DNA of 64,000 bases from the NCBI GenBank assembly GCA_965223425.1, contig OZ245003.1, positions 1,632,001-1,696,000 on the forward strand, read 5' to 3'. Every line of letters begins with the position of its first letter. Positions within the stretch are counted from its first letter, which is position 1. Position numbers and translations under genes: made by a program. The notes under the pieces were generated by a model. It was not told where the DNA came from. It was given only the letters and a program-made list of their open reading frames with translations, and searched no databases. The stretch comes from Nitrosopumilus sp. (lineage in GTDB: Archaea; Thermoproteota; Nitrososphaeria; Nitrososphaerales; Nitrosopumilaceae). Of this stretch, positions 44,051 to 64,000 are shown piece by piece.

Positions 44051-45910
44051 ATGGTTGTGGCAAAGAGACAGATAAAAAAGGAGGAGATAAAGTCACTGGC
44101 GCTGCATCCACTGAACATCAGATATGCCTCAGAGGAGTCAGTCCATGGAACCACCGAGCTTGACTCGATACTGTACAAGTATTCCGATTTAATCAACTCC
44201 ATCTCAAGGCCGCTGACAATTGATGCCGTAAAGGACTATGAGACGCTGATGTTCAACAAGACCCCCCATTTGTGCAACTTTGACCGCGTGATATTCAACT
44301 CCTCTGAAAACCTAGAGCCCATGCTGCACTCAAACTCGATGGAATTTTATCCAGTAGAGACAAGAAAGTGGGAGGTCGAAAAGGAACTCTCAGACCACAT
44401 GGTGCTGGCGGGGGGAATGCACTGCAAGATGTACACCCTTACAAACATGCATGCCGAGCTGCCGCCCGGATGGATTTACGAGCCGTTTTCCAATTCCGAT
44501 TTTCTGAGAATATTCATCAAGCCCGTCCCAAAGGAAAGGCACCTAAAGACAATCAACTCACACAAGTCACTGCAGGCCACCAGGAGCTCGGCCGAAGACA
44601 TGGACCAAACTGACGACGTGGCGGCAATCAGGGAGCTTGTACTGAATGCAAAGACTGACAACCTGTTCTCAGTTATAATCAATGCGGGAATTCTGGGGAT
44701 TGATGCCGAATCCATGCAGGAGAAAATAAAGGAGTTTGAGGCCTCTGACAACAAAAACAGAACAGAGATGTACTCCATGAAGAACGTGCAGTCAAAGTTT
44801 CTGCGCGGACAGATGGGACAGAAGCACCTGATGGTCCGCAGCTCAATGCCCGCACTCATTCCGTTTGTAACATCGGAGATTTATGAGGACGGCGGATGTC
44901 TCCTGGGGCGCAACATGATTACCGGCAACCCGGTAAAGTGGGACATCAACCAGAGGATCAACAGGAATACAGTCCTGGCAGCAACGTCGGGTTCCGGCAA
45001 GACCACCCTTGCAATGATGATAATCCACGCGTTTGAGAAGATGTATCCGGACACCTTCATCTTCGTGATTGATCCCGAATCCGAGTACAGGGCCTTGTCT
45101 GACAACATGGGATTCCATTATTTGGACTATTCATCGGGAACAAAGCTCGGGTTTGACGTGTTCAAGATGGTGGCAGACCCCATCTCGGCGGTAGAGACGC
45201 TCTGCGATGTGCTGCAGGTGCCCTCACTTGATCGGACCCTGCCGTTCCAGGCGGCGGCCAGGATGTCGATCAGAAAGGAGGACAGGGACTTTTTCAAGTT
45301 TTATGATGAACTGGTAAAGCTGGAGGAGGGCTCCCATGGCGCCACGCCATCGCAGTATTTCTCAATTCTGGCCGAGCCGCCATTCAATACGCTGCTGCAG
45401 GGCAGGCCGCCAACTGACAACAAGATTGTACTCTCACTCAAAAACATAGGAAGTGCGGGAGGCGCGGTGCAGAGAATTATCACGCAGATTGCCCTGGCAT
45501 ACGCGATGGGAAAGTCGCTGATGATGCCCAAGATTGTGCCAAAGCTCTTCATGTTGGACGAGGTCTGGATGCTTCTCCAGCACGAATCCCTTGGAAACTA
45601 CATACAGAACCTCTCAAGGCGCGGAAGAAAATACAACATAAACATGATGATGGCATCGCAGAACATCGAGGACATGACAGAGAACCCGGCGGCAAGAAAC
45701 GTGCTGGTCAATTCGGACACGGTGATGTTTCTGAGGCAGTCTGAAACCACTCTAAAGTCCCTTGTCACGCATTTCGTGCTGTCTTCGGAGGCTGCAACTA
45801 CTCTGATGCGGCTGAAGGTGGGGCAGGCGATGATAAAATTCGGGAATAGCATGGTACCGGCAAACGTAATGCCCGACGAGGAGCAGCTCAAGCTCTTCAA
45901 GCCAAAGTGA
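44051..45910 (+). CDS. virB4: VirB4-like conjugation ATPase
   Basis: ATSGSGKTT, VIDPESEY, LDEVW, RRGRKY, ASQNIED. Confidence 0.85.
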   Translation: MVVAKRQIKKEEIKSLALHPLNIRYASEESVHGTTELDSILYKYSDLINSISRPLTIDAVKDYETLMFNKTPHLCNFDRVIFNSSENLEPMLHSNSMEFYPVETRKWEVEKELSDHMVLAGGMHCKMYTLTNMHAELPPGWIYEPFSNSDFLRIFIKPVPKERHLKTINSHKSLQATRSSAEDMDQTDDVAAIRELVLNAKTDNLFSVIINAGILGIDAESMQEKIKEFEASDNKNRTEMYSMKNVQSKFLRGQMGQKHLMVRSSMPALIPFVTSEIYEDGGCLLGRNMITGNPVKWDINQRINRNTVLAATSGSGKTTLAMMIIHAFEKMYPDTFIFVIDPESEYRALSDNMGFHYLDYSSGTKLGFDVFKMVADPISAVETLCDVLQVPSLDRTLPFQAAARMSIRKEDRDFFKFYDELVKLEEGSHGATPSQYFSILAEPPFNTLLQGRPPTDNKIVLSLKNIGSAGGAVQRIITQIALAYAMGKSLMMPKIVPKLFMLDEVWMLLQHESLGNYIQNLSRRGRKYNINMMMASQNIEDMTENPAARNVLVNSDTVMFLRQSETTLKSLVTHFVLSSEAATTLMRLKVGQAMIKFGNSMVPANVMPDEEQLKLFKPK

Positions 45911-48627
45911 TGACACCGGTCAGTAACGACTATTCCGTGATTGGGTACGTCGGGGACAATGCGGATTCGGGCAGGCCTGTGGGGAAGAAAACCGGCAACC
46001 GGCATTCCGGGACGGAATGCGCCGGGGAGAGGATGCTCTCCATTCCAAACAAAATCAGGCAGAACTTTGCAATTTTCGGGGAGATTGGTTCGGGCAAGTC
46101 CTCGATACTGCGGCTGCTGATACTCCAGGACATCCAGGCCGGGAGGGGGTTTCTCCTGGCTGAAAACCACAACGAGCTGTCAAGGGAGATACTCTCAATG
46201 ATTCCGCCCGACCAGTACCACAAAATCGTGTATGTTAATCTGACATCGCTGAGAAAATGGGACAAGACGATGCGCTTTAATCCGCTGCGGTGCGATGATC
46301 CGGTGGATTCTGGGATGGTGGCGCTGACATTCACCGAATGCATGGCAAGGGCGTTTTCTGACTCGTGGGGGGCGCGTGTCGAGACGTGCACCAGGAACGG
46401 CGCCCTTGCAACGATTGGCACGTCAAGCAATACCATCGGAGTCATGCTGAAGCTGCTCACTGACAAGGCCTACCGGGAGGCCTTTGTTCCGACCATACAG
46501 AACAAGCAGGCAAGGGACTTTTTTCTCCACGTGTACGACGAGCAGTATCCAAAGGAGGCAGGAGGTGTCGTCTTCAACAAGCTTAACAAAATGATGACAA
46601 TCCCGGAGATGGATGCGATGTTCAACACCAGCAAGTCGTCAATTGACTTTGCCAAAATAATCGATGAGGGAATGTACGTCATACTTGATTTTGGCGGAGG
46701 CCTCCCCGATGATATGGTACGGTTTCTCGGAAACGTCTTCATGCACCTGTTCTATACCACATACAGGAAGAGGGTCAAGGAGCCTGACGGCACCTACAGG
46801 CCGTTTAACCTGTATCTGGACGAGGTGCAGACGTTCTCGCCATCAATGATTCGTGAGCTGCTCAATACCGTGAGAAAATACGGCATCAAAATGACGGTGG
46901 CAACGCAGTCGGTATCTGCACTGGACAGGGACCTCTCCGACGAGATTGCCACGCTGTGCCGCGCAATTGCGTGCTTTAGGTGCGACGTAAAGACTGCCGC
47001 ACACCTCAAGGCCATACTTCCGTGTACCGTGGAGAAGCAGCAGGCACTGTCATGGCACGTCTTCTCGTTTTATTCCGGAGGGGATTCGCCAATAAAGGCA
47101 GTAGCCAGGACAAGACACCTGCAGGTAGCGCAGAGGTGGGAGCAGGCGGCAAGATCCAGCGTGGAGAGGCTTGGGGAGTTTGTCTCACTGGAGAAATACT
47201 ACAACCAGTCCGGAGGAAACGCCGAGGTGTTGCTGTCCCCGCTCGAGTTTGGAATACTGAACTACCTTCGCATGGAGAACAGGGACGTTTCACGGGACGA
47301 GATAACCAAGGTCATGACAAGAAGGTACAGGACTGATGCCAGAACAGTGGCTTCTGCGATAAATGACACGCTGATTGACTCGCACCATTTTGTCGAAAAG
47401 CACGACATACTCACCGATGACGGGGACAGCAACTTTGAGTCGAGGTACTCTGTCACGTCCACTGCAATCAAGATTGTATTCTCAAAGGCGGCCTCGGGCA
47501 GACGTGCGGGAGGGGACATGCACCTTGCAATGATATTCATGATTCAGGACGTGCAGATGAACCTCGGAAATTACTGCGTTGTGGACAGGGGGACTGGCGC
47601 TGCAAGGCATGCCGACCTGCTGATGTTTTCCCCAGAGAAGATAAGGGACGGCGAGGGAAATGAGATAGCATACCACCCTCACGAGTGGTCAAAGGATATA
47701 ATCGCAGTAGAGGTGGAGACTGCCCCTGGAAAGCACATGGAGCAGGTAGTCACAAACTACAAGAAAAACCACGAAATGGGATACTTTTTGCAGTTTGTAG
47801 TTTTTTCAGAAAGTGACAAGGAGAAGATAGTCAACGCGTTCAGACACGCAAAGATAGGCCAAAAGGAATACTCCATCACGGTCATGAACACGGGCATTCT
47901 GACCTCAGTGGATATGAACTCTGAATCAGTAAGGCAGTTCAGCCCGATACAGACATCGATATTTTCCATTCTGTTAAACGCCGGCGGAATGGCAGCAGAG
48001 CAGTACATCATTGACAACTCATGGAGACACGAGCCAAAACATATCATGGAAACCCTTGCCTCCATGGCAAAGAAGGGCGAGCTTGGGTCTGAGGAGAGGC
48101 AGATCCAGAACCCGTCCAATCCCGATGATCCGTCCGACAAAAAGACAGTAAGGATGTGGAAGCTGGCAGGATACTCTTCCTCTGCAAACAAGAAAAAAGA
48201 CGAAGAGAAAAGAGACGGCGTGGCACCAAAGCTGACAGAGGACACATTTTCCGTATCACGACCTGAGCCGATGGGGCTGTACAGCAGGGACCACTATGAT
48301 CCCGATCCTGGGAAAAAAGACAGGGGGACAGAAGAGGACTCGGAAGCGAAGGGAATGGTACGGCAGTCTGTGAGGGGGGCATGTCCACAGAAAGACAAGG
48401 ATACGGAACCGGAGAAGGCCACGGAACGGAATCATGATGACATCTACCGGGATCTTGATGAGAACATGCTGCTTGACATTTTCATCGCACACGACGTAAA
48501 CGACGAAAAAGAGGACATGCGGAGAATAAGGGAGGTGCTCAATGTGCGCGGGTTCTGCATCAAGCGGCGCGGCCACAACAACTTTTTTGTTGCAAAGATT
48601 CCAAAAAAGAAAAATTCCTCAAGGTGA
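45907..48627 (+). CDS. VirD4/TraG-like coupling protein with C-terminal wHTH and PD-(D/E)XK-like extension
   Basis: FGEIGSGKS, FNPL, YLDEVQTF, RKYGI..ATQS; C-terminal H..ADLL..IAVEVET. Confidence 0.78.
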   Translation: MMTPVSNDYSVIGYVGDNADSGRPVGKKTGNRHSGTECAGERMLSIPNKIRQNFAIFGEIGSGKSSILRLLILQDIQAGRGFLLAENHNELSREILSMIPPDQYHKIVYVNLTSLRKWDKTMRFNPLRCDDPVDSGMVALTFTECMARAFSDSWGARVETCTRNGALATIGTSSNTIGVMLKLLTDKAYREAFVPTIQNKQARDFFLHVYDEQYPKEAGGVVFNKLNKMMTIPEMDAMFNTSKSSIDFAKIIDEGMYVILDFGGGLPDDMVRFLGNVFMHLFYTTYRKRVKEPDGTYRPFNLYLDEVQTFSPSMIRELLNTVRKYGIKMTVATQSVSALDRDLSDEIATLCRAIACFRCDVKTAAHLKAILPCTVEKQQALSWHVFSFYSGGDSPIKAVARTRHLQVAQRWEQAARSSVERLGEFVSLEKYYNQSGGNAEVLLSPLEFGILNYLRMENRDVSRDEITKVMTRRYRTDARTVASAINDTLIDSHHFVEKHDILTDDGDSNFESRYSVTSTAIKIVFSKAASGRRAGGDMHLAMIFMIQDVQMNLGNYCVVDRGTGAARHADLLMFSPEKIRDGEGNEIAYHPHEWSKDIIAVEVETAPGKHMEQVVTNYKKNHEMGYFLQFVVFSESDKEKIVNAFRHAKIGQKEYSITVMNTGILTSVDMNSESVRQFSPIQTSIFSILLNAGGMAAEQYIIDNSWRHEPKHIMETLASMAKKGELGSEERQIQNPSNPDDPSDKKTVRMWKLAGYSSSANKKKDEEKRDGVAPKLTEDTFSVSRPEPMGLYSRDHYDPDPGKKDRGTEEDSEAKGMVRQSVRGACPQKDKDTEPEKATERNHDDIYRDLDENMLLDIFIAHDVNDEKEDMRRIREVLNVRGFCIKRRGHNNFFVAKIPKKKNSSR

Positions 48628-50218: not shown

Positions 50219-50472
50219 TGTATGTTTTGAAAATAAAAAATCGTGTTACAATGCCGCACAGAAACCACAAAAGGAGGAATCCATAATGATATGACAAGGA
50301 CGATGCGAGGCGTCATGACCGATTGCATCTATGAAGAGGCGTCTGCAGAAATATTTTATGGCAGAAAAGACCCGTGCAAAATGCGCCCGCATGATGTGGT
50401 CAAAACGTCGGCAAGCAGAGAAAAAACAACGAAGAGCGAAAATTTCTTGACGAATCCTGAGAAAATGACAGG

Positions 50473-50944: not shown

Positions 50945-51032
50945 AAACGGCCCCGATATCTCTGTCAAATCCAGTCATCAAAAAACACAGATGACAAAAT
51001 ATCTATTTATACCAAAAAATTCAGACAATCAT

Positions 51033-51608: not shown

Positions 51609-51741
51609 TCAGTCACGGTGTTTGGTGCAAAGGGACGGTCCAATCACTAGAATACATCATCCCATGTAGTAATAATTGATGTTATGATCTTCCCTCTTCT
51701 GCAAAAAACCCGTCTTTTATCCAACGTACATACGCGATTGC

Positions 51742-52179: not shown

Positions 52180-52338
52180 CCATCTTGCCTGCATCTGTGT
52201 CTATCAGAGGCCGCATCCCATCCATAATGCCAAATTCAAAATCCACACAGGGACACGAATCCCAATTCAATGGAAACGGCGCATTCATCAGACAGCATGC
52301 CAAAATCAGGTTTATAACAAAACATGGCAGGCAGGTGC

Positions 52339-52899
52339 GTGTTTGGAAAAAAAGACAAGAACCAGATAATAGACGCAAAAGAGTCTGAAAAAATCAGAGA
52401 GAGGCTTGATTCTGATGAAACCATTGTAATGTCGGCAAGGCAGTCCAGGATAAAGCCCGGAGGCGCCGCCGCCGTAACTCCCAACACCATATTTGTGACA
52501 GAAAAGCGGGTAATAATCAGAAACCCGACACGTCTGGGGTTCGGAGAGAACATCGAGGAATACTATTTCCGCCAGATCACAAACATCAGGCTGGAGAAGG
52601 GCATATTCTCCTCGTCGATTGTGCTTGCAATTCCCGGACTGACTGAAATCTCAAAGTATGACAGAAAGCTCACCATGTGGGGCAGGGAATCCGAAGGGGT
52701 GATAGATGCCATACCAAAGGAGATTGCAGAAAAAATATATGATTATGTCAGAAGGAAGATCAATGAAGCCAAGGAGAAAAAGAACATTCCATCCAGTCAT
52801 TCGGCCGGGAACAGCCCCATGAGAATTCTCCAGTCAAGGTATGCGCGAGGAGAAATCTCAAAGGGCAAGTTTGAATCGATGAAAAAGGATTTGGAATAG
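52339..52899 (+). CDS. Bacterial PH domain + SHOCT protein, paralogue 2
   Basis: Highly similar to 51033-51608. Confidence 0.8.
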   Translation: MFGKKDKNQIIDAKESEKIRERLDSDETIVMSARQSRIKPGGAAAVTPNTIFVTEKRVIIRNPTRLGFGENIEEYYFRQITNIRLEKGIFSSSIVLAIPGLTEISKYDRKLTMWGRESEGVIDAIPKEIAEKIYDYVRRKINEAKEKKNIPSSHSAGNSPMRILQSRYARGEISKGKFESMKKDLE

Positions 52900-52909
52900 A
52901 GCAGTCAAA

Positions 52910-54016
52910 ATGTATCATACCATCAGAACAAGACGATATTGTCTTTGCGGGGCGCATGGAATGGCGATATGCCTCATTGGAGCAATTCTTCTGATGCCCG
53001 TCTCTGCTGATGCAAGGGCACAGTCGTGGTGGGACCACATATTTGAATTTCACCGGGACGGCATGATATCAACTGAGGAGCTGAGGACTGCAATGGAATA
53101 CGTGATGGATGTCAGAAACTTGTCGGCGCCCACACCGAAAACCGACAGCAAAAACATAATAACGTATTCTGTCGGAATGTGGCCGGCACTGACATACCCG
53201 GACATACCTGCAGGGGCCATGGAGGCGGCAATCACGACATGGGAGTATAACAATCCGGGCCTTTTGTTTGTCCAGTCAGATTATAATCCGGACATCCGCA
53301 TAGAATGGGATTTGTTCCTCTCAGAAGAGTATGCGGGACTGGCAACATGCACTGATTTTTCAGGTATTGGCTCAATTGACTGTACACTGGACATAGCGCT
53401 TGGTGACTATGACTGCACCGGAGAGTTTGTGCAAGGTGATGTGGATTTTATCACACATACAATAATGCATGAGGTTGGACACGCACTCGGTATCGGGCAT
53501 ACGTCTGATGAAACGCATCTGATGTTTGGACCAGACCCCACAGAGCCGTTTGACACAAAGGGATACCGCATACCTGACTCACTGGACGGAACGTATGTGG
53601 GCCAGGATGAGATTGATGGGGCCATAGATGATACCGGCCGTTCCATTGATAAATTATATGACGATATTCGGGAGATTAATGTCCCGATAGACGAATTGAA
53701 AGTGGAGCTTGACTTGATAAATGACAGACTCATTGCCGGCAAGGACAGAATCAGGGAACTGGAAATGAGGTATGAATTTTACGAGTCCGGAAATCTTTCA
53801 GAAAATCAATACAATCAGGCCATGAGAATCTATGATTTACTGAATATGGAGTATGAGGATCATAAAGTCCTGGTAAACCAGTATAATGAAATTGTCAGGG
53901 AGCAGACAGTTCATATTGATGAATCAAACATGCTTTCTGACGAGTACCAGGCCATGGCAGACAGGCAGTCAGTTCTTGTAGAGACATACAACTGCTATCC
54001 CAATGTGGGGGACTGA
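52910..54016 (+). CDS. Secreted matrixin-like (M10) zinc metalloprotease with coiled coil
   Basis: HEVGHALGIGH + Met-turn LM; signal peptide. Confidence 0.8.
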   Translation: MYHTIRTRRYCLCGAHGMAICLIGAILLMPVSADARAQSWWDHIFEFHRDGMISTEELRTAMEYVMDVRNLSAPTPKTDSKNIITYSVGMWPALTYPDIPAGAMEAAITTWEYNNPGLLFVQSDYNPDIRIEWDLFLSEEYAGLATCTDFSGIGSIDCTLDIALGDYDCTGEFVQGDVDFITHTIMHEVGHALGIGHTSDETHLMFGPDPTEPFDTKGYRIPDSLDGTYVGQDEIDGAIDDTGRSIDKLYDDIREINVPIDELKVELDLINDRLIAGKDRIRELEMRYEFYESGNLSENQYNQAMRIYDLLNMEYEDHKVLVNQYNEIVREQTVHIDESNMLSDEYQAMADRQSVLVETYNCYPNVGD

Positions 54017-54024
54017 CATGCAGC

Positions 54025-54120
54025 CGGCGATGACGGAATCCGGCACACCATTGGCAGTCCGAACAGTCGATATGTCAAAGTCGAGTTATATGGGTTGACT
54101 CCCGATAACTTCACAGAACC
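54025..54120 (+). mobile_element. Second TnpB 3'-end remnant
   Basis: Near-identical to ~43885-43979; ends ..AACTTCACAGAACC. Confidence 0.7.
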
Positions 54121-54371
54121 CGTAAGATAAATAAAAAGAAAAAATAAAATTAAAGAGAGGAGGGGATGATTCATGCCAAGGATATACTATTATTGCGAAA
54201 AACATTATGAGCATTTTGATGAGTGTAACATACGTCACATAAGAGAGCTGACAGACAACACGTGCGTATGCGAGTATAGAAGATGTACAATGCGTGGCAG
54301 GTGCATGATTCTTCTTCGTGTTGACTAGATTAGATTTTGATGCAACCAAACAACAAAAATACGAGTGCCTG

Positions 54372-54602
54372 TTAGAAGTACTGAACTAGAATGATCACAC
54401 AAAAAGATGAAAGTATTGTTGAAGATATTGTCTTTGATGATGGCGACAAAATAGAAATAGCATGTTCATATCCAGATGTGGAAACTGCCATAAAGGCATT
54501 ACACGCTTTTTTTATTGATTTCAAAAAACAACACACAAACCAAGGTTCTGTATAATCTTCGAGAGCTGAAATATGGATCTTCTCCGAATTGAAATTAGGC
54601 AT
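54372..54602 (-). CDS. Small hypothetical protein downstream of a transposase remnant
   Basis: Start overlaps the stop of the transposase fragment. Confidence 0.35.
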   Translation of the reverse strand: MPNFNSEKIHISALEDYTEPWFVCCFLKSIKKACNAFMAVSTSGYEHAISILSPSSKTISSTILSSFCVIILVQYF

Positions 54603-54705
54603 GTTGATTCAATGAGGCATTTTGAATTATTGTCCTCCATTTGTTATTTCTGTCTACTACAACACCAGCTAATTCGGCTGGTGTCTTCTTGCCAATCCCA
54701 CCATG
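54595..54705 (-). pseudogene. C-terminal remnant of an IS6-like DDE transposase
   Basis: HGGIGKKTPAELAGVVVDRNNKWRTIIQNAS. Confidence 0.6.
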
Positions 54706-54839
54706 ATCCACATCTCATGTACCGACAACGTTACAGAACCTCATGATCACCAGCTTGATATTTGCCTAGATAGATCTGTTTTGTTTTCAGGCGTACCGCA
54801 CATCGAAAATTAATATGTAAGAAAAAGAATCAAAGAATG

Positions 54840-54900
54840 AGGGCTCAGAGGTCGTCTCACTCATCACAGAGTCAGAAGTCGTTGGTCTCATCATTGCCCT
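54840..54900 (-). ncRNA. Box C/D guide sRNA (canonical)
   Basis: AGGGCA ATGATGA gaccaacgactt CTGA ctct GTGATGA gtgagacgacct CTGA GCCCT; terminal stem; T-rich tail. Confidence 0.85.
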
Positions 54901-54996
54901 CATTTCTGTTTGATTCGTCTTATCCCTATATAGATATAAACCAAATATAAAACTATCTCTATTAAGGTATAAATTACAGTGCCGTAATTATAGATT

Positions 54997-55206
54997 ATGC
55001 CGATAACTACAAAGACGGTAAGTGGTGAAAGATACATCTACTTTTCACATTATAAGAATGGCAAAAAAAAGGAAACATATTGCGGACTAGCCTCAAAACC
55101 TGAATCAAAAAGAAAAGCAGTAGATCTCGAGATCATCAGTCTGAAAGAACAGCGAAAAACAATATTAGATAAGATTAGAAAATTGGAGGTACAAAGACAC
55201 TTATGA
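54997..55206 (+). CDS. Small putative DNA-binding protein, paralogue of 17257-17490
   Basis: KTVSGERYIY..YCG..PESKRKAVDLEI + coiled coil. Confidence 0.6.
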   Translation: MPITTKTVSGERYIYFSHYKNGKKKETYCGLASKPESKRKAVDLEIISLKEQRKTILDKIRKLEVQRHL

Positions 55207-55240
55207 AGTTTGGATATAAGCCCAGTGGAAGCGGACATAA

Positions 55241-55270
55241 GCTTCCAATAGCTTCCAATAGCTTCCAATA
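55241..55270 (+). repeat. (GCTTCCAATA)x3 tandem repeat upstream of the R-M gene
   Basis: Three exact copies; inverted TGGAAGC just upstream. Confidence 0.85.
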
Positions 55271-55291
55271 TACTATTAATGGTGTTGCCCT

Positions 55292-58027
55292 CTGGTAGCA
55301 CCAGAGAATCTATCTCTGGAGGAGATCAAGACAAATGCCATAAATTTTTCAGAGAGATGGAAAAATGAAAAGAATGAAAAATCAGAGGCCCAGACCTTTG
55401 TTAATGAGTTCTTTGCAGTGTTTGGGTTAGATAGAAAGACAGTTGCAAGATTAGAAGAGCACCCAGATAATTCACCTGATTGGATGGATTGCTTTTGGAA
55501 GAGCAAATTAATAATTGAGATGAAAAGTCTTGGAGAAAATCTAGATAAGGCAATGGAGCAGGCACTCAGTTATTATGTACAACTGAAAAAAGATGAAGAG
55601 CCACGACACATACTGGTTTGTGATTTTGAACACTGGTATATTCGTGACAAAAAAGAAAACACAGATCACTTTTTCATACTATCTGAACTAGTTGATAATA
55701 TAGGGCTTTTTGGGTTTATGACAGACAGACCTAAGCTGATACGTGCAGATCCTGTAAACTTGCATGCATCAGAAACCTTAGGTAAAATCTTTAACATGTT
55801 AAAAGCAGCTAACTATGGGACTCATCATACAGAATACTTTTTGACAAGGCTTGTGTTCTGTCTGTTTGCTGATGACACTGGCATATTTGGTGATCATGGT
55901 AAATTTCAAGCCTACATTAAAGAATCTACCTTGGAGGATGGCTCTGATTTAGGCCGTTATCTCGCATACTTGTTTGGCGTACTAAACCAAGACAGAGACA
56001 CACGCTCCAAAACAATGGACTCTAAAACTCGTTCATTCCCATACATCAACGGTGCGTTGTTTGAAAAGCCAATAGAGTTTCCTGATTTTAATGGCAAGAT
56101 GAGAGAGTTATTAATTCAAGCAGGTGACTATGACTGGTCTAAAGTATCACCCGCAATTTTTGGCAACATGTTCCAGACCGTAATGGATCAGGATGCACGC
56201 CGTGAGATGGGGGCTCATTACACCAGTGAGGAAAACATACTCAATGTCATCAGACCGTTGTTTTTGGATAAACTAAATGAGGAATACGACGAGATAAACA
56301 GCATAGCTGATGATGCCAAAAAAGCCAGATTTGTAGAATTTCAAAACAAGCTTGCAAGCTTGACGTTTTTAGATCCTGCATGTGGCAGTGGAAATTTCCT
56401 AGTAATAGCATACAGGGAAATAAGAAGATTGGAGCACCGTGTGATTATGAAGATACATGGTTATGCGGGCAAAAGAACGGATACTGACGGATTATCAAAG
56501 GTAGATGTAAACCAATTTTATGGAATTGAGATAATAGAATTTTCCTCTCGTATTGCAGAGACATCGCTTTGGATGATGGATCATATTATGAATGTGGAAT
56601 TATCAAACAGATACGGATATAGATTTAGAAGGATACCAATTAAGAAAAAACCCAATATTGTATGGAAAGATGCATTGGAGTTTGACTGGAACGAACTTCT
56701 GCCAAGTGAGGAATGCTCTTACGTATTTGGGAATCCCCCGTTTGGCGGTTCAAAGACGATAACTAAAGAGCAGAGAGGGCAAGTACAGCGTATAGCGAAT
56801 ATTGAAAGAAGCGGTGGAACGTTGGACTATGTTACTGCATGGTTTTTTAAGGCATGTGAGTATATACCACACACCAAATGTCCTCAAATTGCATTTGTGT
56901 CCACTAACAGTATAACTCAAGGAGAACAGGTAGGGCAGCTGTGGCCCGCTATGTTTGAAAGGCATGGTGTGGAAATATCCTTTGCATATCAGTCATTCAA
57001 GTGGGAGTCAGAGGCAAGAGGCAGGGCACAGGTGACTGTAATTATAATAGGTCTTACAAGAAACGATGACAGGAAACGACTATTCCATTATGATGACAAT
57101 GGAAATCTCATTGAGATTAATCCTGAATGTATCTCCCCCTACCTAATTGAAACATCAAAGACACTTCCGATAGTAATGGAGACATCAAAACCACTCAACG
57201 GTTTCCAAAAAATGAAGATGGGTTCTAAACCCATAGATGGCGGAAATTACATTTTTACCAGTGATGAAAAGGAGAAATTTCTTGCAGAAGAGCCAAACGC
57301 AAAAGATTTTTTCAGACCGTATGTAAATGCGGATGAATTTCTGAATGGCAACATGAGATCAATCTTGGCATTGCATAATATTGAGCCACATGAGCTGAGA
57401 AGACTGCCGAGAGTTATGAAACGAGTTAACTTGGTGAGATTATTCAGAAAGAAAAGCATAGATAAAGGAACAAAAAAACTGGCGGATAATCCTACATCTT
57501 ACCATCTTAATGTGATACCTACGTCCACATTCCTGATTATACCACGTGTTACTTCTGAGAAACGTGAATATGTGCCAATAGGTTTTTTGGAGCCTCCTAT
57601 AATACCTAGTAGTGCCACTATGGTTATAGAGAATGCCTCTCTTGACATGTTCGGACTTTTGACTTCAAAAATGCACATGATATGGCTTAGAACAGTTGGT
57701 GGCAAGCTGAAATTTGATCTTAGGTATTCTAAAGGAATAGTATACAACACATTCCCAATTCCAACTGATTGGAGTGAAAAATCAAAAACTTTGTGGCCAT
57801 ACGCACAATCCATACTTGATGCCAGAAAGAGTCATCCCGAGTCCACATTGGCAGACCTCTATGATCCGACGGCAATGCCAACTGACCTGAAAAATGCACA
57901 TCAAAAACTGGACAAGGCTGTGGAGAAATTATACAGGAAAAAACCGTTTGAATCAGACAGTAAGAGGCAGGAGTTCCTGCTGGAAGAGTATCAAAAGATG
58001 ATAGATGATCATCAAACTACTTTATAG
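55292..58027 (+). CDS. MmeI-like type IIL/IIG restriction-modification enzyme
   Basis: LSLEEIK..F..RW, IEMKS, GAHYTSEENI, LDPACGSGNFL, GNPPFGG, STLADLYDP; homology extends upstream of 55418 to a CTG at 55292. Confidence 0.9.
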   Translation: MVAPENLSLEEIKTNAINFSERWKNEKNEKSEAQTFVNEFFAVFGLDRKTVARLEEHPDNSPDWMDCFWKSKLIIEMKSLGENLDKAMEQALSYYVQLKKDEEPRHILVCDFEHWYIRDKKENTDHFFILSELVDNIGLFGFMTDRPKLIRADPVNLHASETLGKIFNMLKAANYGTHHTEYFLTRLVFCLFADDTGIFGDHGKFQAYIKESTLEDGSDLGRYLAYLFGVLNQDRDTRSKTMDSKTRSFPYINGALFEKPIEFPDFNGKMRELLIQAGDYDWSKVSPAIFGNMFQTVMDQDARREMGAHYTSEENILNVIRPLFLDKLNEEYDEINSIADDAKKARFVEFQNKLASLTFLDPACGSGNFLVIAYREIRRLEHRVIMKIHGYAGKRTDTDGLSKVDVNQFYGIEIIEFSSRIAETSLWMMDHIMNVELSNRYGYRFRRIPIKKKPNIVWKDALEFDWNELLPSEECSYVFGNPPFGGSKTITKEQRGQVQRIANIERSGGTLDYVTAWFFKACEYIPHTKCPQIAFVSTNSITQGEQVGQLWPAMFERHGVEISFAYQSFKWESEARGRAQVTVIIIGLTRNDDRKRLFHYDDNGNLIEINPECISPYLIETSKTLPIVMETSKPLNGFQKMKMGSKPIDGGNYIFTSDEKEKFLAEEPNAKDFFRPYVNADEFLNGNMRSILALHNIEPHELRRLPRVMKRVNLVRLFRKKSIDKGTKKLADNPTSYHLNVIPTSTFLIIPRVTSEKREYVPIGFLEPPIIPSSATMVIENASLDMFGLLTSKMHMIWLRTVGGKLKFDLRYSKGIVYNTFPIPTDWSEKSKTLWPYAQSILDARKSHPESTLADLYDPTAMPTDLKNAHQKLDKAVEKLYRKKPFESDSKRQEFLLEEYQKMIDDHQTTL

Positions 58028-58122
58028 ACACAATTTCTTGATTCAGAGAAGATCAGTATTTCATACCTATATCACTACAAGTTGACAGAACCAATCAAAG
58101 GAATCCTTAACTTGTATGACGT

Positions 58123-58362
58123 ATGAAACATGCTATGAATGACGATACTGCCGACTGCACAAGTGTTATTCTTATTTATGCTGGTATTTTTATGATGATG
58201 GCAGGAGCACTCGTTACAATCATCTGGATTGAGCTTGCCGTCGTAATTATGGTGGGAGGTGGCATACTATTAATGGCATCGGGGGTCATTGGGATGGCGT
58301 ATGGAGGCCTTGGATGGGAATATGTCCCAGAGGATGTGAGAAAAAGACAGACAGAGGACTGA
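58123..58362 (+). CDS. Small membrane protein
   Basis: Two TM helices. Confidence 0.45.
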   Translation: MKHAMNDDTADCTSVILIYAGIFMMMAGALVTIIWIELAVVIMVGGGILLMASGVIGMAYGGLGWEYVPEDVRKRQTED

Positions 58363-58483
58363 TCAGATCACACAAATTCCCGAACCAGTCAAGTACATGG
58401 CAGGTATGACGGCATATTGTACGTAAGATACTGAAATATCCTGTTTTTATCCTATTTCCATATTTTTAGATGTGAGAACAAGA

Positions 58484-58606
58484 ATGCAGACAAACTGCAA
58501 GTACTGTGGCGGTAGGAATTATTATCACCTTTATGAAGATTCGATGCCGCTTGATAGCAGGTCGTGGCTGTATTGCATGGACTGTGGATTTACGCGTCCC
58601 GCATGA
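58484..58606 (+). CDS. 40-aa zinc-ribbon microprotein
   Basis: MQTNCKYCGG..WLYCMDCGFTRPA. Confidence 0.5.
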   Translation: MQTNCKYCGGRNYYHLYEDSMPLDSRSWLYCMDCGFTRPA

Positions 58607-58689
58607 GAACACGCGTACCCGGCGTTTCATGAGGTATGGGGTTCTCTAAAAACAATAATACTGTTCATATGCACCATTCAACATAAGCG

Positions 58690-59757
58690 ATGAACGATGC
58701 ATTCTGGATGGAACATATCAGGGGATGGATGCGGATGGAGCACAGACAGAGGCCGTGCCGCCTGGTATGTCTTGTGGAAGACGAGGGCGAATTTGACACA
58801 ATACGGACAATGGCCGAAGGGCTTGGAGTCGGCGCAGTATCCGTATATGACGACTCGTGGACAATGAATCCCACGTCACATGCAATTATAGTTGGAACAC
58901 ACGATGAACTGCTGTCGCGCTCACTGGATCGCGGGTACGGTGTAAAACCTGCCATGTGGCACATACAGTTTGGACTGTTAAATTCCGACTGTCTGTGGAC
59001 AATGAAATCCCCAAACCGTGTCTGGTGCGGTCTTGACTCGCTACATAAAAAATTGGGTGCATACAACATATTCTCTGATACAAAAGTGACTGATGCGGCA
59101 GACATTCCCATACGTGGCCTGTTTGACGTATCGGGTGGAACAGAAGACGACATCGAGGAATTTATGATGGGGTTCCCACACCATGAGACTGAACAGCATG
59201 AGAGGATGGTGCAGGGCACGAAATGGGTGACTCTTCCCAGGCATCTTTCGCAGACAGTTACGGCCGTACTGGATCTTGCAGTCAACAAGAGGTTTGAAGG
59301 AACGCTGCTGACTGCCGCCAGATATCATGATTATGGCAAGTCACATCCTCTTTTCCAGAAAATGCTTCTTGGTGGACTTGATCAAAATGAGAGAATGTCC
59401 AGGGCCGGAACAGTGTGGGCCAAGAGAAGGCCCAGAACCAGACTGGAATGTGCAGGTTACCGCCACGATCTGACAGGTGCGTGCGCCTTTGTCAGCACAA
59501 ATCCCGACATGTTGCTTGAGGGATATCTCATCATGTCACACCACGGCAGGTTTTATTTTTCAATTCCCAAAGTCAGTGACAGGCTGCCAAAAACGGATGT
59601 CGGCGGCGGCATTATTGTTGGCGACACCTCGTTTGAGATGACCCAGGACAAATGGGGCGCAATATTTGATCAGCTGTACAGAACACACGGGCCGTTCGTG
59701 CTGGCGTACCTTGAGGCGGTCCTGCGCGTGGCCGACATGAGGGCAAGTGATCTGTAG
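58690..59757 (+). CDS. cas3: Shortened type I-G (I-U) Cas3: helicase remnant + C-terminal HD nuclease
   Basis: AIIVGTHDELLSRSLDRGYG..FGLLNSDCLW (Cas3u helicase segment); RHL..YHDYGK..GYRHD..SHHGR..LAYLEAVLRVAD (HD). Confidence 0.8.
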   Translation: MNDAFWMEHIRGWMRMEHRQRPCRLVCLVEDEGEFDTIRTMAEGLGVGAVSVYDDSWTMNPTSHAIIVGTHDELLSRSLDRGYGVKPAMWHIQFGLLNSDCLWTMKSPNRVWCGLDSLHKKLGAYNIFSDTKVTDAADIPIRGLFDVSGGTEDDIEEFMMGFPHHETEQHERMVQGTKWVTLPRHLSQTVTAVLDLAVNKRFEGTLLTAARYHDYGKSHPLFQKMLLGGLDQNERMSRAGTVWAKRRPRTRLECAGYRHDLTGACAFVSTNPDMLLEGYLIMSHHGRFYFSIPKVSDRLPKTDVGGGIIVGDTSFEMTQDKWGAIFDQLYRTHGPFVLAYLEAVLRVADMRASDL

Positions 59758-59891
59758 TGTGTGGATGTCAGAAGGAATCAGACAAACTGCATGGTTACCA
59801 AGTATGGTTGCCAATCATGGCCGATGAAGGCGGAACATAATCTATATTCTGCCCCCACTTCAATTGAGACATGCCTGTTTGGCGTCCTATT

Positions 59892-60170
59892 CTAGAGAAA
59901 GTCCGGGTCGTCATCATCTGTCGGAATCTCCGACTTTTGGCCGCCTGTGTGATTGTTGTCTCTTTCTGTTTTTATTTTGTCATTTATTTCCGCAATCACA
60001 TCCAGGTCAAGGCGCTTTAGGATCATCTCTGCATTTTCTACAAGAAACCGGACATCGTTTAAAATGCCGTCAATCTTTCTCCTGGTCCTTAATTTCTGAA
60101 GCCTTAGTCTTCCAGGCGAAAAAGAGTCAGGTGAGACAATCGCCCGCTTTTGTTTGTCAGTTAGTGCCAT
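59892..60170 (-). CDS. Small protein downstream of the ParM-like gene (ParR-like adaptor?)
   Basis: MALTDKQKRAIV start overlapping the ParM-like stop. Confidence 0.45.
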   Translation of the reverse strand: MALTDKQKRAIVSPDSFSPGRLRLQKLRTRRKIDGILNDVRFLVENAEMILKRLDLDVIAEINDKIKTERDNNHTGGQKSEIPTDDDDPDFL

Positions 60171-61015
60171 TTCTGCGCCTTTGTAAGCATCCCAAGCGCA
60201 TTTGAAAATACTGGGTCCCTTGCTATCTGGCACTTGTCGCGTATTGCCTCATTTTTTATCTCAGAGACAAGCTTTGGTATCAGTGCCCCGCCTCCGGCCA
60301 GAATCACAGGAAGTTCCGGAAAGTCAATGACTGTCTTTGTCAGGGAATCAGATATAGAGTCTGCAAGAAGCTTTCTGTACTGTGAGAGCTCCGGAGTGTC
60401 CTTTGCAAACAGGCTCTTCTCCTTGACGTATCCGGTCTTTGTGTCAGTTATTGCAGAGGTGATGTCTCCGACTCCGTGATCCAGTGTCAGGCCTGAGGCT
60501 ATCTTGCCATTGACTACTGCCATTATCTCAGTGGTTCCATGTCCGATGTGGCACACAATACCGTCCTCCAATCCCTGGTGGATGAGGGTGGCCCTTGCCT
60601 GGTATATGAGCCCAAAGAACTTTGGTCCAAGCGCCTTCATTACTGCCTCGCGAATCTTTTTGCTGTGGTCCCTTGCAGCATATGGGACTCCTGCAACGAT
60701 GACCATTTGTGCATACCTGCCAACGGCAGATGTCCTGGGGGTTCCGAGGATCTGGTCCATTGAGTATTTTATCAGGCTGATATAGTCCTCCATTATTGTT
60801 GGAATCCCGCGATATACGGGCCTCTTTAGTGTCATTGTTTTTATGGTTTCATATTTTGCAGCATCGTATCCGATGTGTGTCGTATCCTTGTTGTTTGACT
60901 CTAGCTCCAGGTGCCTGCCAGTGGCAATTAGTGACGGGAACTTTGTCAATCTGGTCGATGTTGCAATCTTTACAAAGCCGGTTCCAATGTCGAGTCCGGC
61001 AACATATTCACTCAT
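60161..61015 (-). CDS. ParM/StbA-like actin ATPase
   Basis: GLDIGTGFVK, CHIGHGTTE, ILAGGGA, FSNALG. Confidence 0.8.
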   Translation of the reverse strand: MSEYVAGLDIGTGFVKIATSTRLTKFPSLIATGRHLELESNNKDTTHIGYDAAKYETIKTMTLKRPVYRGIPTIMEDYISLIKYSMDQILGTPRTSAVGRYAQMVIVAGVPYAARDHSKKIREAVMKALGPKFFGLIYQARATLIHQGLEDGIVCHIGHGTTEIMAVVNGKIASGLTLDHGVGDITSAITDTKTGYVKEKSLFAKDTPELSQYRKLLADSISDSLTKTVIDFPELPVILAGGGALIPKLVSEIKNEAIRDKCQIARDPVFSNALGMLTKAQKWH

Positions 61016-61056
61016 TGAGATTGCCGTATCAGTTTTGAATTTAAGGCAGTTTTTGC

Positions 61057-61292
61057 CGTTTCAAAAAAGTGAAACGCCGTTTCACTTTTCCGACGGTTTT
61101 GAATTCGGGGTACTTTTTCCTGAAAAACGGAGATAAAAAAAGGTACTCAATACAACACACATATACAATATAAACAAACAACAAAAAACATCTAAAATAC
61201 AACAACGGCAATCGATAAGGAGAAATCCCAATTAATTATTCCAAATTTTACAAAGTGCGAAAAAATCGCGAATGTTTCACTTTTTTGAAACG
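61057..61292. repeat. 19-bp inverted repeat pair (operator/centromere-like)
   Basis: CGTTTCAAAAAAGTGAAAC (61057-61075) and its reverse complement (61274-61292); extra half-site at 61078-61090. Confidence 0.75.
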
Positions 61293-61443
61293 CTTTCTGG
61301 CCAGAATTTCACAGTATGTGATCGTAAATAATTAGAAAGAAAAAGAAAACAAAAAATTCAGAGCAACCAAAAAAATCAGACACCAATCCAAAATCATTTC
61401 AAAAAAATCATTACACCAAAACAGAATCAAGATAATAAAAAGA

Positions 61444-61507
61444 AGGGCCATGATGAGACTCCATTCATTCTGACATCAATATGATGACAGAGATCAGTCT
61501 GAGCCCT
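61444..61507 (+). ncRNA. Box C/D guide sRNA (canonical)
   Basis: AGGGCC ATGATGA gactccattcatt CTGA catcaat ATGATGA cagagatcagt CTGA GCCCT. Confidence 0.85.
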
Positions 61508-61590
61508 CAAATTCAATCTAACTGACTTCAATAAAAATCAGACCATACCAAACCAACCACTCATTCCAAGAAAATCAAGATAATAAAAAA

Positions 61591-61654
61591 AGGGCGGTGA
61601 TGAGTTCCATTCATTCTGTCATCATTATGATGATAAACCCCCAGTCCTGGCCCC
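61591..61654 (+). ncRNA. Degenerate box C/D sRNA copy
   Basis: AGGGCG GTGATGA gttccattcatt CTGT catcatt ATGATGA taaacccccagtc CTG GCCC. Confidence 0.55.
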
Positions 61655-61696
61655 CATTCCCCAGCAACACATACCAATTAAAACATTCAAAAAGAA

Positions 61697-61794
61697 AAAC
61701 ATCCTGATGAGCCCTTTTGGGCCAACTCCAATCAGAACATAACTGGTTTGGATGAGCCCTACTAGGGCGAAACTGCCATTGGCAGTCGATGTTT
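61697..61794 (+). ncRNA. Type I hammerhead ribozyme 1
   Basis: Stem I AAACATC/GATGTTT, CTGATGA, stem II GCCCT..AGGGC, GAAA, stem III CTGCC-ATT-GGCAG, GTC cleavage after 61787. Confidence 0.85.
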
Positions 61795-62136
61795 CGCAAA
61801 ATACTTTCGCGAGTATCTGGTGGCGAAAAGCTGCCAACAATCAGAAAGGGCACTAAAGAGTATGCCCTAAGAATATTCCTTCGAGGGGGATATGTTCTCC
61901 GTGATGGTTCACGATTGGTATGTTTGCCCACTTGTTATTGGGATCACAAACTAGACCGGCCATACATGGAATGGTTTGAAATAAGCCGAGACGGCACTCT
62001 AACATATTACAGACTAAAGGATTCTGTAAAGGCTGTTGCCGAGTGCAAGGTTGAATCAAATTATGGGTTCATACCAAAAGCCACATACCCTCGTGTCATG
62101 AAGGCCTGTCGGGCTCCATGCAACTCTGGTTGTTAA
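61789..62136 (+). CDS. Small hypothetical protein directly after hammerhead 1
   Basis: MFRKILSRVSGG..; AUG one nt after the predicted cleavage site. Confidence 0.6.
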   Translation: MFRKILSRVSGGEKLPTIRKGTKEYALRIFLRGGYVLRDGSRLVCLPTCYWDHKLDRPYMEWFEISRDGTLTYYRLKDSVKAVAECKVESNYGFIPKATYPRVMKACRAPCNSGC

Positions 62137-62210
62137 CTGATAATTCCTCTCACGAGGAATATCTTCCCCTTTTTATTAAACTGTAAATTTACAGCATGCC
62201 AAACCGGCAT
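62134..62210 (+). repeat. Conserved 3' box of the cassette (second copy at 62589-62670)
   Basis: ATTCCTC/GAGGAAT hairpin, T-run, ATGCC/GGCAT hairpin in both copies. Confidence 0.8.
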
Positions 62211-62234
62211 TCCAATGAAAACTTTCAAAAAGAA

Positions 62235-62332
62235 AAACATCCTGATGAGCCCTTTTGGGCCAACTCCAATCAGAACATAACTGGTTTGGATGAGCCCTGC
62301 TAGGGCGAAACTGCCATTGGCAGTCGATGTTT
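62235..62332 (+). ncRNA. Type I hammerhead ribozyme 2
   Basis: Identical to copy 1 except one stem-II base; cleavage after 62325; 538 nt period. Confidence 0.85.
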
Positions 62333-62560
62333 CGCAAAATACTTTCGCGAGTATCTGGTGGCAAAAAGCCACAAACCAAAGAGTGTCCAGATAACATTGT
62401 CTGCATGGAAGACGAAAGAATCGGATACATCGAACGTGACGGTTCGCGGTTGGAACGTTATCCATGGAGATGTCAGCAGGAAGACTACGATAAAGGTTAT
62501 CCAGAACTGAAATGGGCCAACCTCCGGTTAGACAAAGCAGCTTGCAGAGAAGCAAGTTGA
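62327..62560 (+). CDS. Small hypothetical protein directly after hammerhead 2
   Basis: Same first 12 aa as the 61789 ORF, then largely divergent. Confidence 0.55.
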   Translation: MFRKILSRVSGGKKPQTKECPDNIVCMEDERIGYIERDGSRLERYPWRCQQEDYDKGYPELKWANLRLDKAACREAS

Positions 62561-63134
62561 CTCAGAGTCTTCATACGTCTTTGGTTACTAACTGATAATT
62601 CCTCTCATGAGGAATATCTTCCCCTTTTTTATTAAACAGAAACTAATTTTACAGCATGCCAAACCGGCATCCATAAATCATTCTTGAAAATATAACATCA
62701 AATCAAACACGGCAATCGCACAGAGACATGCAGATGAGCTTTTTTATTATCATAATTTTATCAATTCAACATCATATTGGGCCAGTGTCCCAATTTACAA
62801 AGGCAAATTTCAGAAAATTTCACGCCATTGCTTCCTTATTATGATGAGCAAGAAAAAAACACCCTATTATCCGCGCATCAAGCGAGAATTTGAGCCCGAC
62901 CCGGAAGACAAGGAAATCTGGTAGGCGCTCATGCCCCTTTTTTTCTATAACATCCATTTGATTGTTTTATCATTATGTACATGCGTTCCGGCATGTCTTT
63001 ATGAAATTGTAATGATGACTGGCACGGGGCGTATGGAATCGCCTGAGTTTCGGACTGTGATGAAACAGTTTGAGCAAAGTCCACACGAGTGCCCACATTC
63101 AATTCATGAAACAGCGAAAGCTTGACCAAGAAAA

Positions 63135-63186
63135 CCATGCCGATGTGCTCTACTTGAGCGAAACAGCCCTTTGTGGCAGTCCATGG
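63135..63186 (+). ncRNA. Divergent/degenerate type I hammerhead 3
   Basis: CCATG CCGATGT GCTC-tactt-GAGC GAAA CAGCC..GGCAG TC CATGG; two core deviations and one stem III mismatch. Confidence 0.55.
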
Positions 63187-63596
63187 AAAGAACCATGACA
63201 AAGAAAGTCAAATTTCTTAAAAGGAGACTTGCCTGTTCCTTGCGTATAGAAAACATCTCTTATCGACTGATGTTTGATTGCGGTCCAATAGGAAGACCAT
63301 ATTCTGCAATCGTTTATCAGCTGATGTTTGATTGCGGTCCAATAGGAAGACCATATTCTATAATCGTGAGTCTAGTCAACAAGCTTCTCAGAAAAGAAAG
63401 ACTCTATCCTAACGACTACGACAGTCCGGATTTTCCTGCATGCTGCAGAAAAACGATTGTTGGGTTGGAAAATACCAGTAGTATTAAGGGCAGCGCATTT
63501 CCTCACAGATGCAAGACCTGCAATAGGGAGTGGCAATACTACTTTGGATATGTGTTGCATAGTAGCCTATTTGGAGAACAGCCAATATGGGACTGA
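63183..63596 (+). CDS. Small Cys-rich protein directly after hammerhead 3
   Basis: ATG 63183 one nt after the GTC site; CC..CxxC; internal 18-aa duplication. Confidence 0.55.
   Translation: MERTMTKKVKFLKRRLACSLRIENISYRLMFDCGPIGRPYSAIVYQLMFDCGPIGRPYSIIVSLVNKLLRKERLYPNDYDSPDFPACCRKTIVGLENTSSIKGSAFPHRCKTCNREWQYYFGYVLHSSLFGEQPIWD
63260..63367 (+). repeat. 54-bp in-frame tandem duplication
   Basis: YRLMFDCGPIGRPYSAIV / YQLMFDCGPIGRPYSIIV. Confidence 0.9.
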
Positions 63597-63727
63597 CCCC
63601 CACTCTTTTTTTCTAATCATATTTTCTTAATTTTAGACACACAACACCTGCAAATAATCAACACATACTTTTTGATTATTTCATTAATGCGGCAAGGCAT
63701 CACCTCTTGCTGTTTTGTAATTCCAAC

Positions 63728-63790
63728 GGGGGCCATGATGAGACAGAACAGTTCCGACTCTGTGATGAGTGAGACGACATCCGAGTCCTC
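63728..63790 (+). ncRNA. Box C/D sRNA with CCGA D/D' boxes
   Basis: GGGGGCC ATGATGA gacagaacagtt CCGA ctct GTGATGA gtgagacgacat CCGA GTCC. Confidence 0.7.
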
Positions 63791-63867
63791 ATTGTCAGTA
63801 ACTGTATCATTGATTTTAACCTTGGTGCCACTCTGTACAGTCTTGCACCGCTTTGAAAAAATCCAAC

Positions 63868-63981
63868 GGGGGCGATGATGAATAAAATTATGGCCCAATC
63901 TCATGATGAGACACAACAGTTCCACTCCTGGAATCCACCTCCTCCTAGAAGGTTCTGTGACAGGCCGCTATCTGAGCCCCC
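63868..63981 (+). ncRNA. Degenerate/extended box C/D sRNA
   Basis: Same TCCAACGGGGGC leader, ATGATGA at 63875 and 63903, terminal CTGA GCCCCC. Confidence 0.45.
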
Positions 63982-64000
63982 ATCAATCATACAAATTAGA

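Follow-up and report, generated by a model that had tools for sequence, protein, structure and literature searches.

Box C/D units and their guides

The window analysed in this work is a 64,000-nucleotide (nt) stretch of Nitrosopumilus sp. DNA, corresponding to C1:1632001-1696000 of the host genome G000 (2.64 Mb, two contigs), and the study concerns five small RNA (sRNA) units of the box C/D type located in it. Box C/D sRNAs guide 2'-O-methylation with the proteins L7Ae, Nop5 and fibrillarin. The initial annotation of the sequence had described two canonical and three variant sRNAs of this kind, and all five units were found where it had placed them. Positions below are those of the window unless a contig or locus is given; bp denotes base pairs.

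54840-54900 (feature entry 54838..54902, including a 7-bp helix), minus strand: sRA, intact C/D', C'/D unit
61443-61509, plus strand: sRB, intact unit with exact C, D', C' and D boxes
61592-61655, plus strand: sRC, tandem paralogue 147 nt downstream of sRB, with D' CTGT and terminal "D" CTGG
63728-63790, plus strand: sRD, sRA-like unit with CCGA as both D' and D
63868-63981, plus strand: sRE, rearranged 114-nt unit

The coordinates of the boxes were counted by hand. The sRA unit contains box C (ATGATGA, 54894-54888), D' (CTGA, 54875-54872), C' (GTGATGA, 54867-54861) and D (CTGA, 54848-54845), two guides of 12 nt each (D' guide 54887-54876, D guide 54860-54849) and a terminal helix of 7 bp (TGAGGGC/GCCCTCA). 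The corresponding elements of sRB are C at 61450-61456, D' at 61470-61473, C' at 61481-61487 and D at 61499-61502, with the D' guide at 61457-61469 and the D guide at 61488-61498. The D' guide of sRC, GTTCCATTCATT, is intact. The sRD unit shares its spacer, C' box and D guide family with sRA, and its minimum-energy fold includes the terminal helix. In sRE, box C (63875-63881) is followed by a second ATGATGA (63903-63909), an sRD-like guide (63910-63921), an insert of about 46 nt and box D (CTGA, 63972-63975); its perfect 6-bp helix (GGGGGC/GCCCCC) is retained in the fold (z -1.3).

Taken over the set, terminal RUGAUGA/CUGA boxes are present in sRA, sRB and sRE, and box D deviates in sRC and sRD. 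The internal D'/C' boxes are exact in sRA and sRB, variant at D' in sRC and sRD, and degenerate in sRE. Guides are 11-13 nt long in sRA to sRD, and the terminal helices measure 5-9 bp. The window holds a partly decayed set of two intact and three defective units. The reuse of guides that had been noted earlier was confirmed, each shared guide being present in both of the units named for it: GTGAGACGAC(C/A)T in sRA and sRD, TCCATTCATT in sRB and sRC, and GACA(G/C)AACAGTT in sRD and sRE. The D guide of sRB is identical to that of one unit in a tandem array of genome G080.

The motifs of the five units are beyond chance. A strict four-box pattern occurred at three places in the 2.64 Mb genome, two of them inside the window, and a relaxed scan gave seven matches in the genome against 0, 0 and 0 in three shuffled genomes. 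A covariance model, R1, was trained on 30 family units (alignment A3) that included sRA and sRB and left out sRC, sRD and sRE. It scored sRB at 69.3 bits, sRA at 63.1, sRD at 42.9 (expectation value E 2.8e-7), sRC at 40.0 (E 1.6e-6) and sRE at 25.9 (E 0.007), which placed all five within the ten best matches genome-wide. In the 30 aligned sequences the boxes were invariant or at least 90% conserved and the guide columns varied.

Internal boxes were further analysed in 55 distinct family units collected by terminal boxes and stems alone. An exact CTGA lay 10-14 nt after box C in 40 of the 55, against a chance rate of about 2% by our own arithmetic; an exact TGATGA lay 10-14 nt before box D in 26, and 20 units had both. 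Stem positions 5-9, which the search had not imposed, were compared over 39 distinct flank pairs and showed compensatory Watson-Crick pairs (position 7: AT 8, TA 13, CG 1; position 8: TA 6, AT 6, GC 6). The earlier claim of a related box C/D sRNA family with exchanged guides is supported.

Three further units of the family were located on the chromosome of G000.

C1 648285-648346 (L007 4285-4346), minus strand: chromosomal unit about 420 nt upstream of alaS (alanyl-transfer RNA synthetase)
C1 917179-917252: related family unit
C1 1832561-1832619: chromosomal unit flanked by a DNA methylase-HNH gene and a transposase gene, with a D' guide identical to that of sRC

The pairing of guides with ribosomal RNA (rRNA) and transfer RNA (tRNA) of the host was analysed, with E. 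coli rRNA numbering taken from a MAFFT alignment. As a control of the method, a chromosomal sRNA paired with the tRNA-Leu(CAA) anticodon loop at 10/10 scored positions, the fifth position falling on C34. The D' guide of the unit near alaS paired with the anticodon region of tRNA-Ala(UGC), also at 10/10 scored positions. The earlier suggestion that the guides be compared with host rRNA and tRNA gave one clear match in the window and otherwise weak or orphan guides. The clear match was that of the sRC D' guide: GTTCCATTCATT forms 11 contiguous Watson-Crick pairs with 23S 2063-2073, which 1.3% of shuffled guides equalled, and its fifth position lies on 23S A2066, equivalent to E. coli A1969. The TCCATTCAT guide of sRB and sRC would address 23S A2066 in helix 71, the one predicted target that is secure by sequence. 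With regard to the earlier proposal that the element reprograms host RNA modification, this site would be duplicated rather than new, because the chromosomal unit at C1 1832561-1832619, outside the element, carries the same guide.

The D guide of sRA and sRD is two or three bases off family guides that match 16S 1344-1355 at 10/11 positions. This guide, GTGAGACGAC, is a weakened copy of the family guide that is predicted to address 16S C1348 (E. coli C1407, helix 44). A tRNA variable-loop/T-stem target that had been proposed for the complement of GACCAACGACTT did not hold: the best rRNA or tRNA duplex scored 7, a value reached by 97% of shuffles, and the best tRNA matches had 8 Watson-Crick and 1 G-U pair over 10 positions. 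A candidate site for the sRA D' guide at 23S 858-869 (9 Watson-Crick pairs, 3 mismatches) was dropped because the sRA orthologue at locus L052 alters a paired base. Genome-wide complements of the 10-11-nt guide cores occurred at chance frequency and were uninformative.

Targeting was also assessed over the whole family. When 94 distinct family guides were compared with the rRNA and tRNA of G000, 22 had at least 10/11 Watson-Crick pairs versus 6 of 94 shuffled guides, and four had 11/11 pairs versus none of the shuffled. When guides were compared with their own rRNA operons (G080, G014, G041 and G157), 7 of 28 had at least 10 pairs versus 5 of 140 shuffles. The sites at which independent guides recurred, in E. 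coli numbering, were the following.

23S 1969
23S 2451
23S 1918
23S 750-754
16S 969/970
16S 1407

The functional centres that array guides are predicted to address comprise helix 69, helix 71, peptidyl-transferase A2451, the helix 35 loop, the 16S helix 31 loop and the helix 44 decoding site.

Mobile-type setting and distribution of the family

The host genome contains one linked 16S-23S operon and an archaeal amoA gene. The genes surrounding the sRNA units in the window were assigned largely by Pfam matches.

30364-31992: VirB11-type ATPase (Pfam match)
44051-45910, plus strand: VirB4/TraG-type ATPase of the conjugative apparatus (Pfam)
45907-48627, plus strand: coupling-protein-like gene of the conjugative apparatus (Pfam)
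60161..61015, minus strand: actin-like ATPase gene (Pfam MreB_Mbl, Actin, ALP_N), divergent from the sRB-sRC pair
62841..62924, plus strand: open reading frame (ORF) of 27 residues that follows arrays in G080, G014 and G016 (translation and tblastn)
within the window: SMC-like ATPase gene
within the window: Eco57I-type and MmeI-type restriction-modification genes

Across 44051..48627 the Pfam families were P-loop_TraG, DUF87, AAA_10, TraG-D_C and T4SS-DNA_transf. A DndB gene lies just upstream of the window and an SNase-like gene just downstream. DNA similarity to window 44001-64000 was found in only 10 of 40 sampled congeners, every match being partial, and VirB4/TraG homologues occur at 66-71% DNA identity in congeners G157, G159 and G188. 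The region is regarded as integrated mobile-type DNA because of its gene content and because the DNA matches among congeners are few and partial.

The guide TCCATTCATT was found behind a C box in 3 of 151 sampled genomes of the host family; in G080 it belongs to an array of 11 head-to-tail units that repeat about every 150 nt, and the period is regular across arrays at 130-160 bp. The stem-plus-box pattern was present in 11 of the 151 genomes. Searched in one genome per GTDB species it gave 17 loci, 15 of them labelled Nitrosopumilus or Nitrosopumilaceae; metagenome contigs gave six loci, all single units, and viral contigs none. The R1 model matched at E<=1e-4 in 26 of 146 genomes of the host family (including the unpublished G092, with one weak match) and in none of nine sampled congeners; scores of at least 38 bits were confined to six of the 146 (G000, G014, G016, G041, G080 and G097). 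The family is sporadic in distribution. Together with the conjugation and restriction-modification genes, these figures agree with the earlier view that the units lie in mobile-type DNA and are not part of the conserved core.

The neighbourhood of the units was compared over 16 loci in addition to the window. Actin-like homologues with 44-54% identity lie directly beside units at 7 of the 16 (L043 of G080, L055, L057, L058, L063, L066 and L073 of G157), and at all seven, as in the window, transcription of the units would point away from the actin-like gene. The family is divergent from this gene in at least eight loci of seven genomes, as tandem arrays of 1 to 11 units. The number per site is 1 (G157 and L058), 3, 4, 5, 7 or 11, and the arrays of 5, 7 and 11 are mostly intact. 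The window has 2 + 2 units at this site, with about 2 kb of inserted small ORFs between them. SNase-like homologues lie on the far side of the array in 6 of the 16 loci and a 199-residue ORF is present in 8; at least one of the actin-like, SNase-like and 199-residue genes occurs in 12. The conserved 27-residue ORF had tblastn matches at L043 (two), L044 and L045, and its variation falls mainly on third positions of codons. The actin-like gene and the one sRB-like unit of G157 lie 2.7 kb from a VirB4-like gene. No Pfam family was matched by the 113-residue ORF located downstream of the actin-like gene in the window.

Units are also found away from this site. The sRA orthologue at L052 differs by 1 nt in each guide. 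The sRA locus is 84% identical over 179 nt to the chromosomal locus at C1 648182-648363; the alignment takes in about 20 nt before the sRNA and about 110 nt after it, and both guides are entirely different. In G185 the small ORF neighbouring sRA is present at 81% identity and the sRNA is absent there. Several units have GAATCAA on their upstream side and TTGATTC on their downstream side, an arrangement that would extend the helix. Among the isolated units, that of L052 adjoins a BglII-type restriction-modification system and an insertion sequence, and that of L056 an insertion sequence and CRISPR-Cas genes. Some guide groups differ in the central 3 nt alone, namely three G080 units of the form GACAC-NNN-CAGT, and sRD versus sRE.

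Contigs from the sequencing runs of four studies contain the stretch or parts of it. A low-depth contig of another run carries an sRA-like copy with changes at 54844, 54847 and 54852, one of which makes box D CCGA, as in sRD. The second contig of G000, C2 (123 kb), has a guanine-plus-cytosine content of 47% compared with 41% for C1 and carries 4 of the 12 tyrosine-recombinase matches of the genome; it could represent a plasmid or some other mobile element. The relaxed C/D scan found no unit on C2.

Interpretation and alternative explanations

The five units are probably genuine archaeal box C/D guide RNA genes, belonging to a mobile and sporadic family and carried by an ammonia oxidiser of the Nitrosopumilaceae within an integrated element of conjugative type. 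Transcription, ribonucleoprotein (RNP) assembly, methylation and a benefit to the element or to the host are what we infer from the sequences. Each unit would be transcribed, and a terminal helix of 6-11 bp would bring boxes C and D together as a kink-turn. The folded unit would then be bound by L7Ae, Nop5 and fibrillarin of the host, and the target nucleotide opposite the fifth guide position, counted upstream from box D or D', would be 2'-O-methylated. In the genome, Nop5 and fibrillarin are adjacent (C1 2156411-2157905) and L7Ae is encoded at C1 426222-426494; the element was found to contain none of the three genes. Because the host encodes all three and the element none, the units would have to use the host proteins, in agreement with the initial annotation, which had named these three proteins. 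The family would expand at a fixed spot next to the actin-like gene, through tandem duplication and through exchange of guide modules, and single cassettes would also move between chromosome and element.

The units resemble known archaeal box C/D sRNAs in their C/D'/C'/D boxes, guides of about 12 nt, terminal helix and length of about 60 nt, and in their complementarity to rRNA functional centres and tRNA anticodon loops. They differ in that the host is a mesophile with few such genes (about ten R1 matches at E<0.01), in that the window genes lie in mobile DNA and partly in tandem arrays, in the D-box variants CCGA and CTGG, and in that no Rfam family is matched at gathering score. Clustered or polycistronic small nucleolar RNA (snoRNA) genes occur in plants and trypanosomes. 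Mammals have snoRNA retroposons (Weber 2006, as cited in PMC7994747). The eukaryotic genes share tandem arrays and mobility with the present family, but they are RNA-mediated or intron-borne and are not located on a conjugative element.

The composite, transposed and MITE-like C/D sRNAs of Pyrobaculum (MITE, miniature inverted-repeat transposable element) are chromosomal and belong to hyperthermophile hosts (Lui et al. 2018, PMC6009581). Their guides change places between the D and D' positions as well as between families, duplicated genes occur, flanks are conserved around variable guides, and orphan guides arise by divergence, all of which is similar to the present family. Unlike the Pyrobaculum genes, the window family is cargo of a conjugative-type element at one conserved spot, where as many as 11 units follow one another head to tail. 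Ammonia-oxidising Thaumarchaeota are known to have integrated elements that carry VirB4-type genes (Krupovic et al. 2019, PMC6563490), and the present region is like these integrative-conjugative elements, being integrated and having VirB4-type genes. The main text of PMC6563490 makes no mention of sRNA, snoRNA, fibrillarin, non-coding, ParM or actin. A 2021 review states that mobile features of C/D guide genes are still to be discovered (PMC7994747). Full-text searches gave no earlier description of C/D sRNA genes carried by plasmids, conjugative elements or viruses of archaea; the supplements of PMC6563490 and PMC6009581 may include this element or similar sRNA sets.

Several observations weigh against the reading of the units as guide RNA genes of a mobile element. 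With respect to the element, the tyrosine recombinase family PF00589 had 12 matches genome-wide and none in the window, the nearest being at C1 1579996; att-like repeats were not found at tRNA genes near the region. Congener G159 has two actin-like/SNase copies with a 490-nt gap and no sRNA unit between them. The sRNAs are accordingly regarded as dispensable, optional cargo of the element module, because such modules exist without units. With respect to the RNAs, no Rfam family matched the window at gathering score. Rfam models of C/D sRNAs of this sort were built for single sRNAs of other lineages. At E<=5, however, 20 of the 22 sub-threshold matches in 54000-64000 were C/D-box families on sRA, sRB, sRC or sRD, the best being sR1 on sRA (31.2 bits, E 7e-5, cut-off 45), and this counts in favour of motifs beyond chance.

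With respect to the targets, the only individually significant guide of the window is that of sRC, and it sits in a unit whose D box is CTGG. The sRB D' guide makes 9 contiguous pairs with 23S 2063-2071, and the sRA/sRD D guide makes 8 Watson-Crick and 2 G-U pairs with 16S over guide positions 3-12. Each of these two matches was equalled by 24% of shuffles, and both target calls depend on homology to better guides elsewhere. Five guides (sRA D', sRB D, sRC D, sRD D' and that of sRE) are orphans with no rRNA or tRNA target, and the orphan window guides gave nothing above shuffle level against 5S, RNase P RNA, signal recognition particle RNA and pre-rRNA spacers. About three quarters of the family guides are likewise without a strong rRNA match.

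Three alternatives were considered. The units could be real sRNA genes by descent that are now neutral hitch-hikers or pseudogenes, derived through recombination in a variable region from sRNA genes of the chromosome, with host modification unaffected. Defective or rearranged D boxes in three of the five units (sRC, sRD and sRE), the sole strong guide being a repeat of a chromosomal one, the sRB copy of that guide falling short by two pairs, the G159 modules and the flanks that sRA has in common with a chromosomal locus all suit this explanation. Against it, sRA and sRB retain all four boxes, the 12-13-nt spacing and the helices; boxes and stems, but not spacers, are kept across elements whose actin-like proteins share no more than 44-54% identity; and the long arrays of other genomes are mostly intact. 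We regard such passive carriage as unlikely, although it keeps an appreciable share of the probability. Rather more improbable is that the orphan guides act on messenger RNAs (mRNAs) or on RNAs of rival elements or viruses, or that the RNPs serve as chaperones or sinks for L7Ae, which would make the units a regulatory or conflict device. The majority of guides lacking an rRNA or tRNA match, the guide groups that vary in three central nucleotides and the location among defence genes would fit such a role, but no specific target was found, the sRA guides had no other exact 11-nt complement in the genome, guides of 12 nt cannot be confidently assigned in mRNA space, and the family was absent from the viral contigs scanned.

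A role at the level of DNA was also considered, in which the tandem units would act like a centromere or as an iteron region when the element segregates or replicates, the RNA motifs being secondary. In type II partition loci, centromere repeats lie upstream of the actin-like gene; the units at the conserved site are invariably upstream of and divergent from such a gene, and their period of 130-160 bp is regular. Yet the same gene is accompanied by a single unit in G157 and at L058 and by none in G159, sRA and other isolated units are located elsewhere, and neither the rRNA-complementary guides nor the compensatory stem changes would be explained. This role is considered highly improbable.

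Box C/D guide RNAs are regarded as housekeeping genes of the host. Returning to the reading as functional guide genes, a broader proposal may be made tentatively, and it is on balance doubtful: conjugative or plasmid-like elements of Nitrosopumilaceae would carry an expandable cassette site, with the actin-like gene on one side and in several loci the SNase-like gene on the far side, at which guide arrays directed to functional centres of the ribosome are built and reshuffled, so that ribose methylation of rRNA would be a horizontally transferred, element-controlled trait. If this is true, element-controlled methylation might tune or protect the host ribosome, for example against ribonuclease toxins or ribosome-targeting compounds; protection from the former is conceivable because a 2'-O-methyl group blocks cleavage that uses the 2'-OH. 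If the units are active, abundant ammonia oxidisers of sea and soil could gain and lose ribosome modification along with a mobile element, and the arrays would provide a natural system for duplication of guide RNA genes and exchange of guide modules.

Hammerhead-like motifs and other neighbouring sequences

Some of the small ORFs between the two pairs of units are preceded by hammerhead-like motifs. Two copies of a hammerhead-like three-way junction lie on the plus strand at 61697-61793 and 62235-62332, each composed of CTGATGA, a long stem II, GAAA, a 6-bp stem III and GTC, and they end one base before the ATG of the small ORFs 61789-62136 and 62327-62560. The minimum-energy fold of the second copy is exactly the junction (z -4.3). 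Rfam Hammerhead_1 and RAGATH-1-hammerhead aligned end to end but below threshold, at 17 and 20 bits. The putative cleavage would give a nearly leaderless mRNA.

The two ORF cassettes share a 169-nt head (61670-61838 and 62208-62376, 95% identical) that includes the hammerhead-like motif, and a 61-nt tail (62114-62174 and 62569-62629) with a hairpin and T-run; their coding bodies differ, with 115 versus 77 residues. A third, degenerate hammerhead-like motif at 63130-63185, upstream of ORF 63171-63596, folds no better than shuffled sequence (z 0.05). This ORF contains an internal 54-nt tandem duplication at 63255-63362, 89% identical.

In the gap between the actin-like and SNase-like genes of G159 (L084 5180-5460), where other elements carry arrays, three near-palindromic boxes of about 20 nt have the form GGTTGCG...ACGTAACC; they may be a protein-binding site. 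A segment of about 470 nt in the window (50473-50944) is matched in congeners G159, G164 and G188 by dozens of tandem copies that are 70-75% identical to it, and is probably a repeated domain of very large genes. Just past the window end, ARAGORN reported two tRNA-like genes with anticodon GAT and lengths of 88-90 nt (L005 868-955 and 2002-2091; C1 1696868-1696955 and 1698002-1698091). They exceed the 77-nt chromosomal tRNA-Ile(GAT) by 11-13 nt and are embedded among several partial self-repeats.

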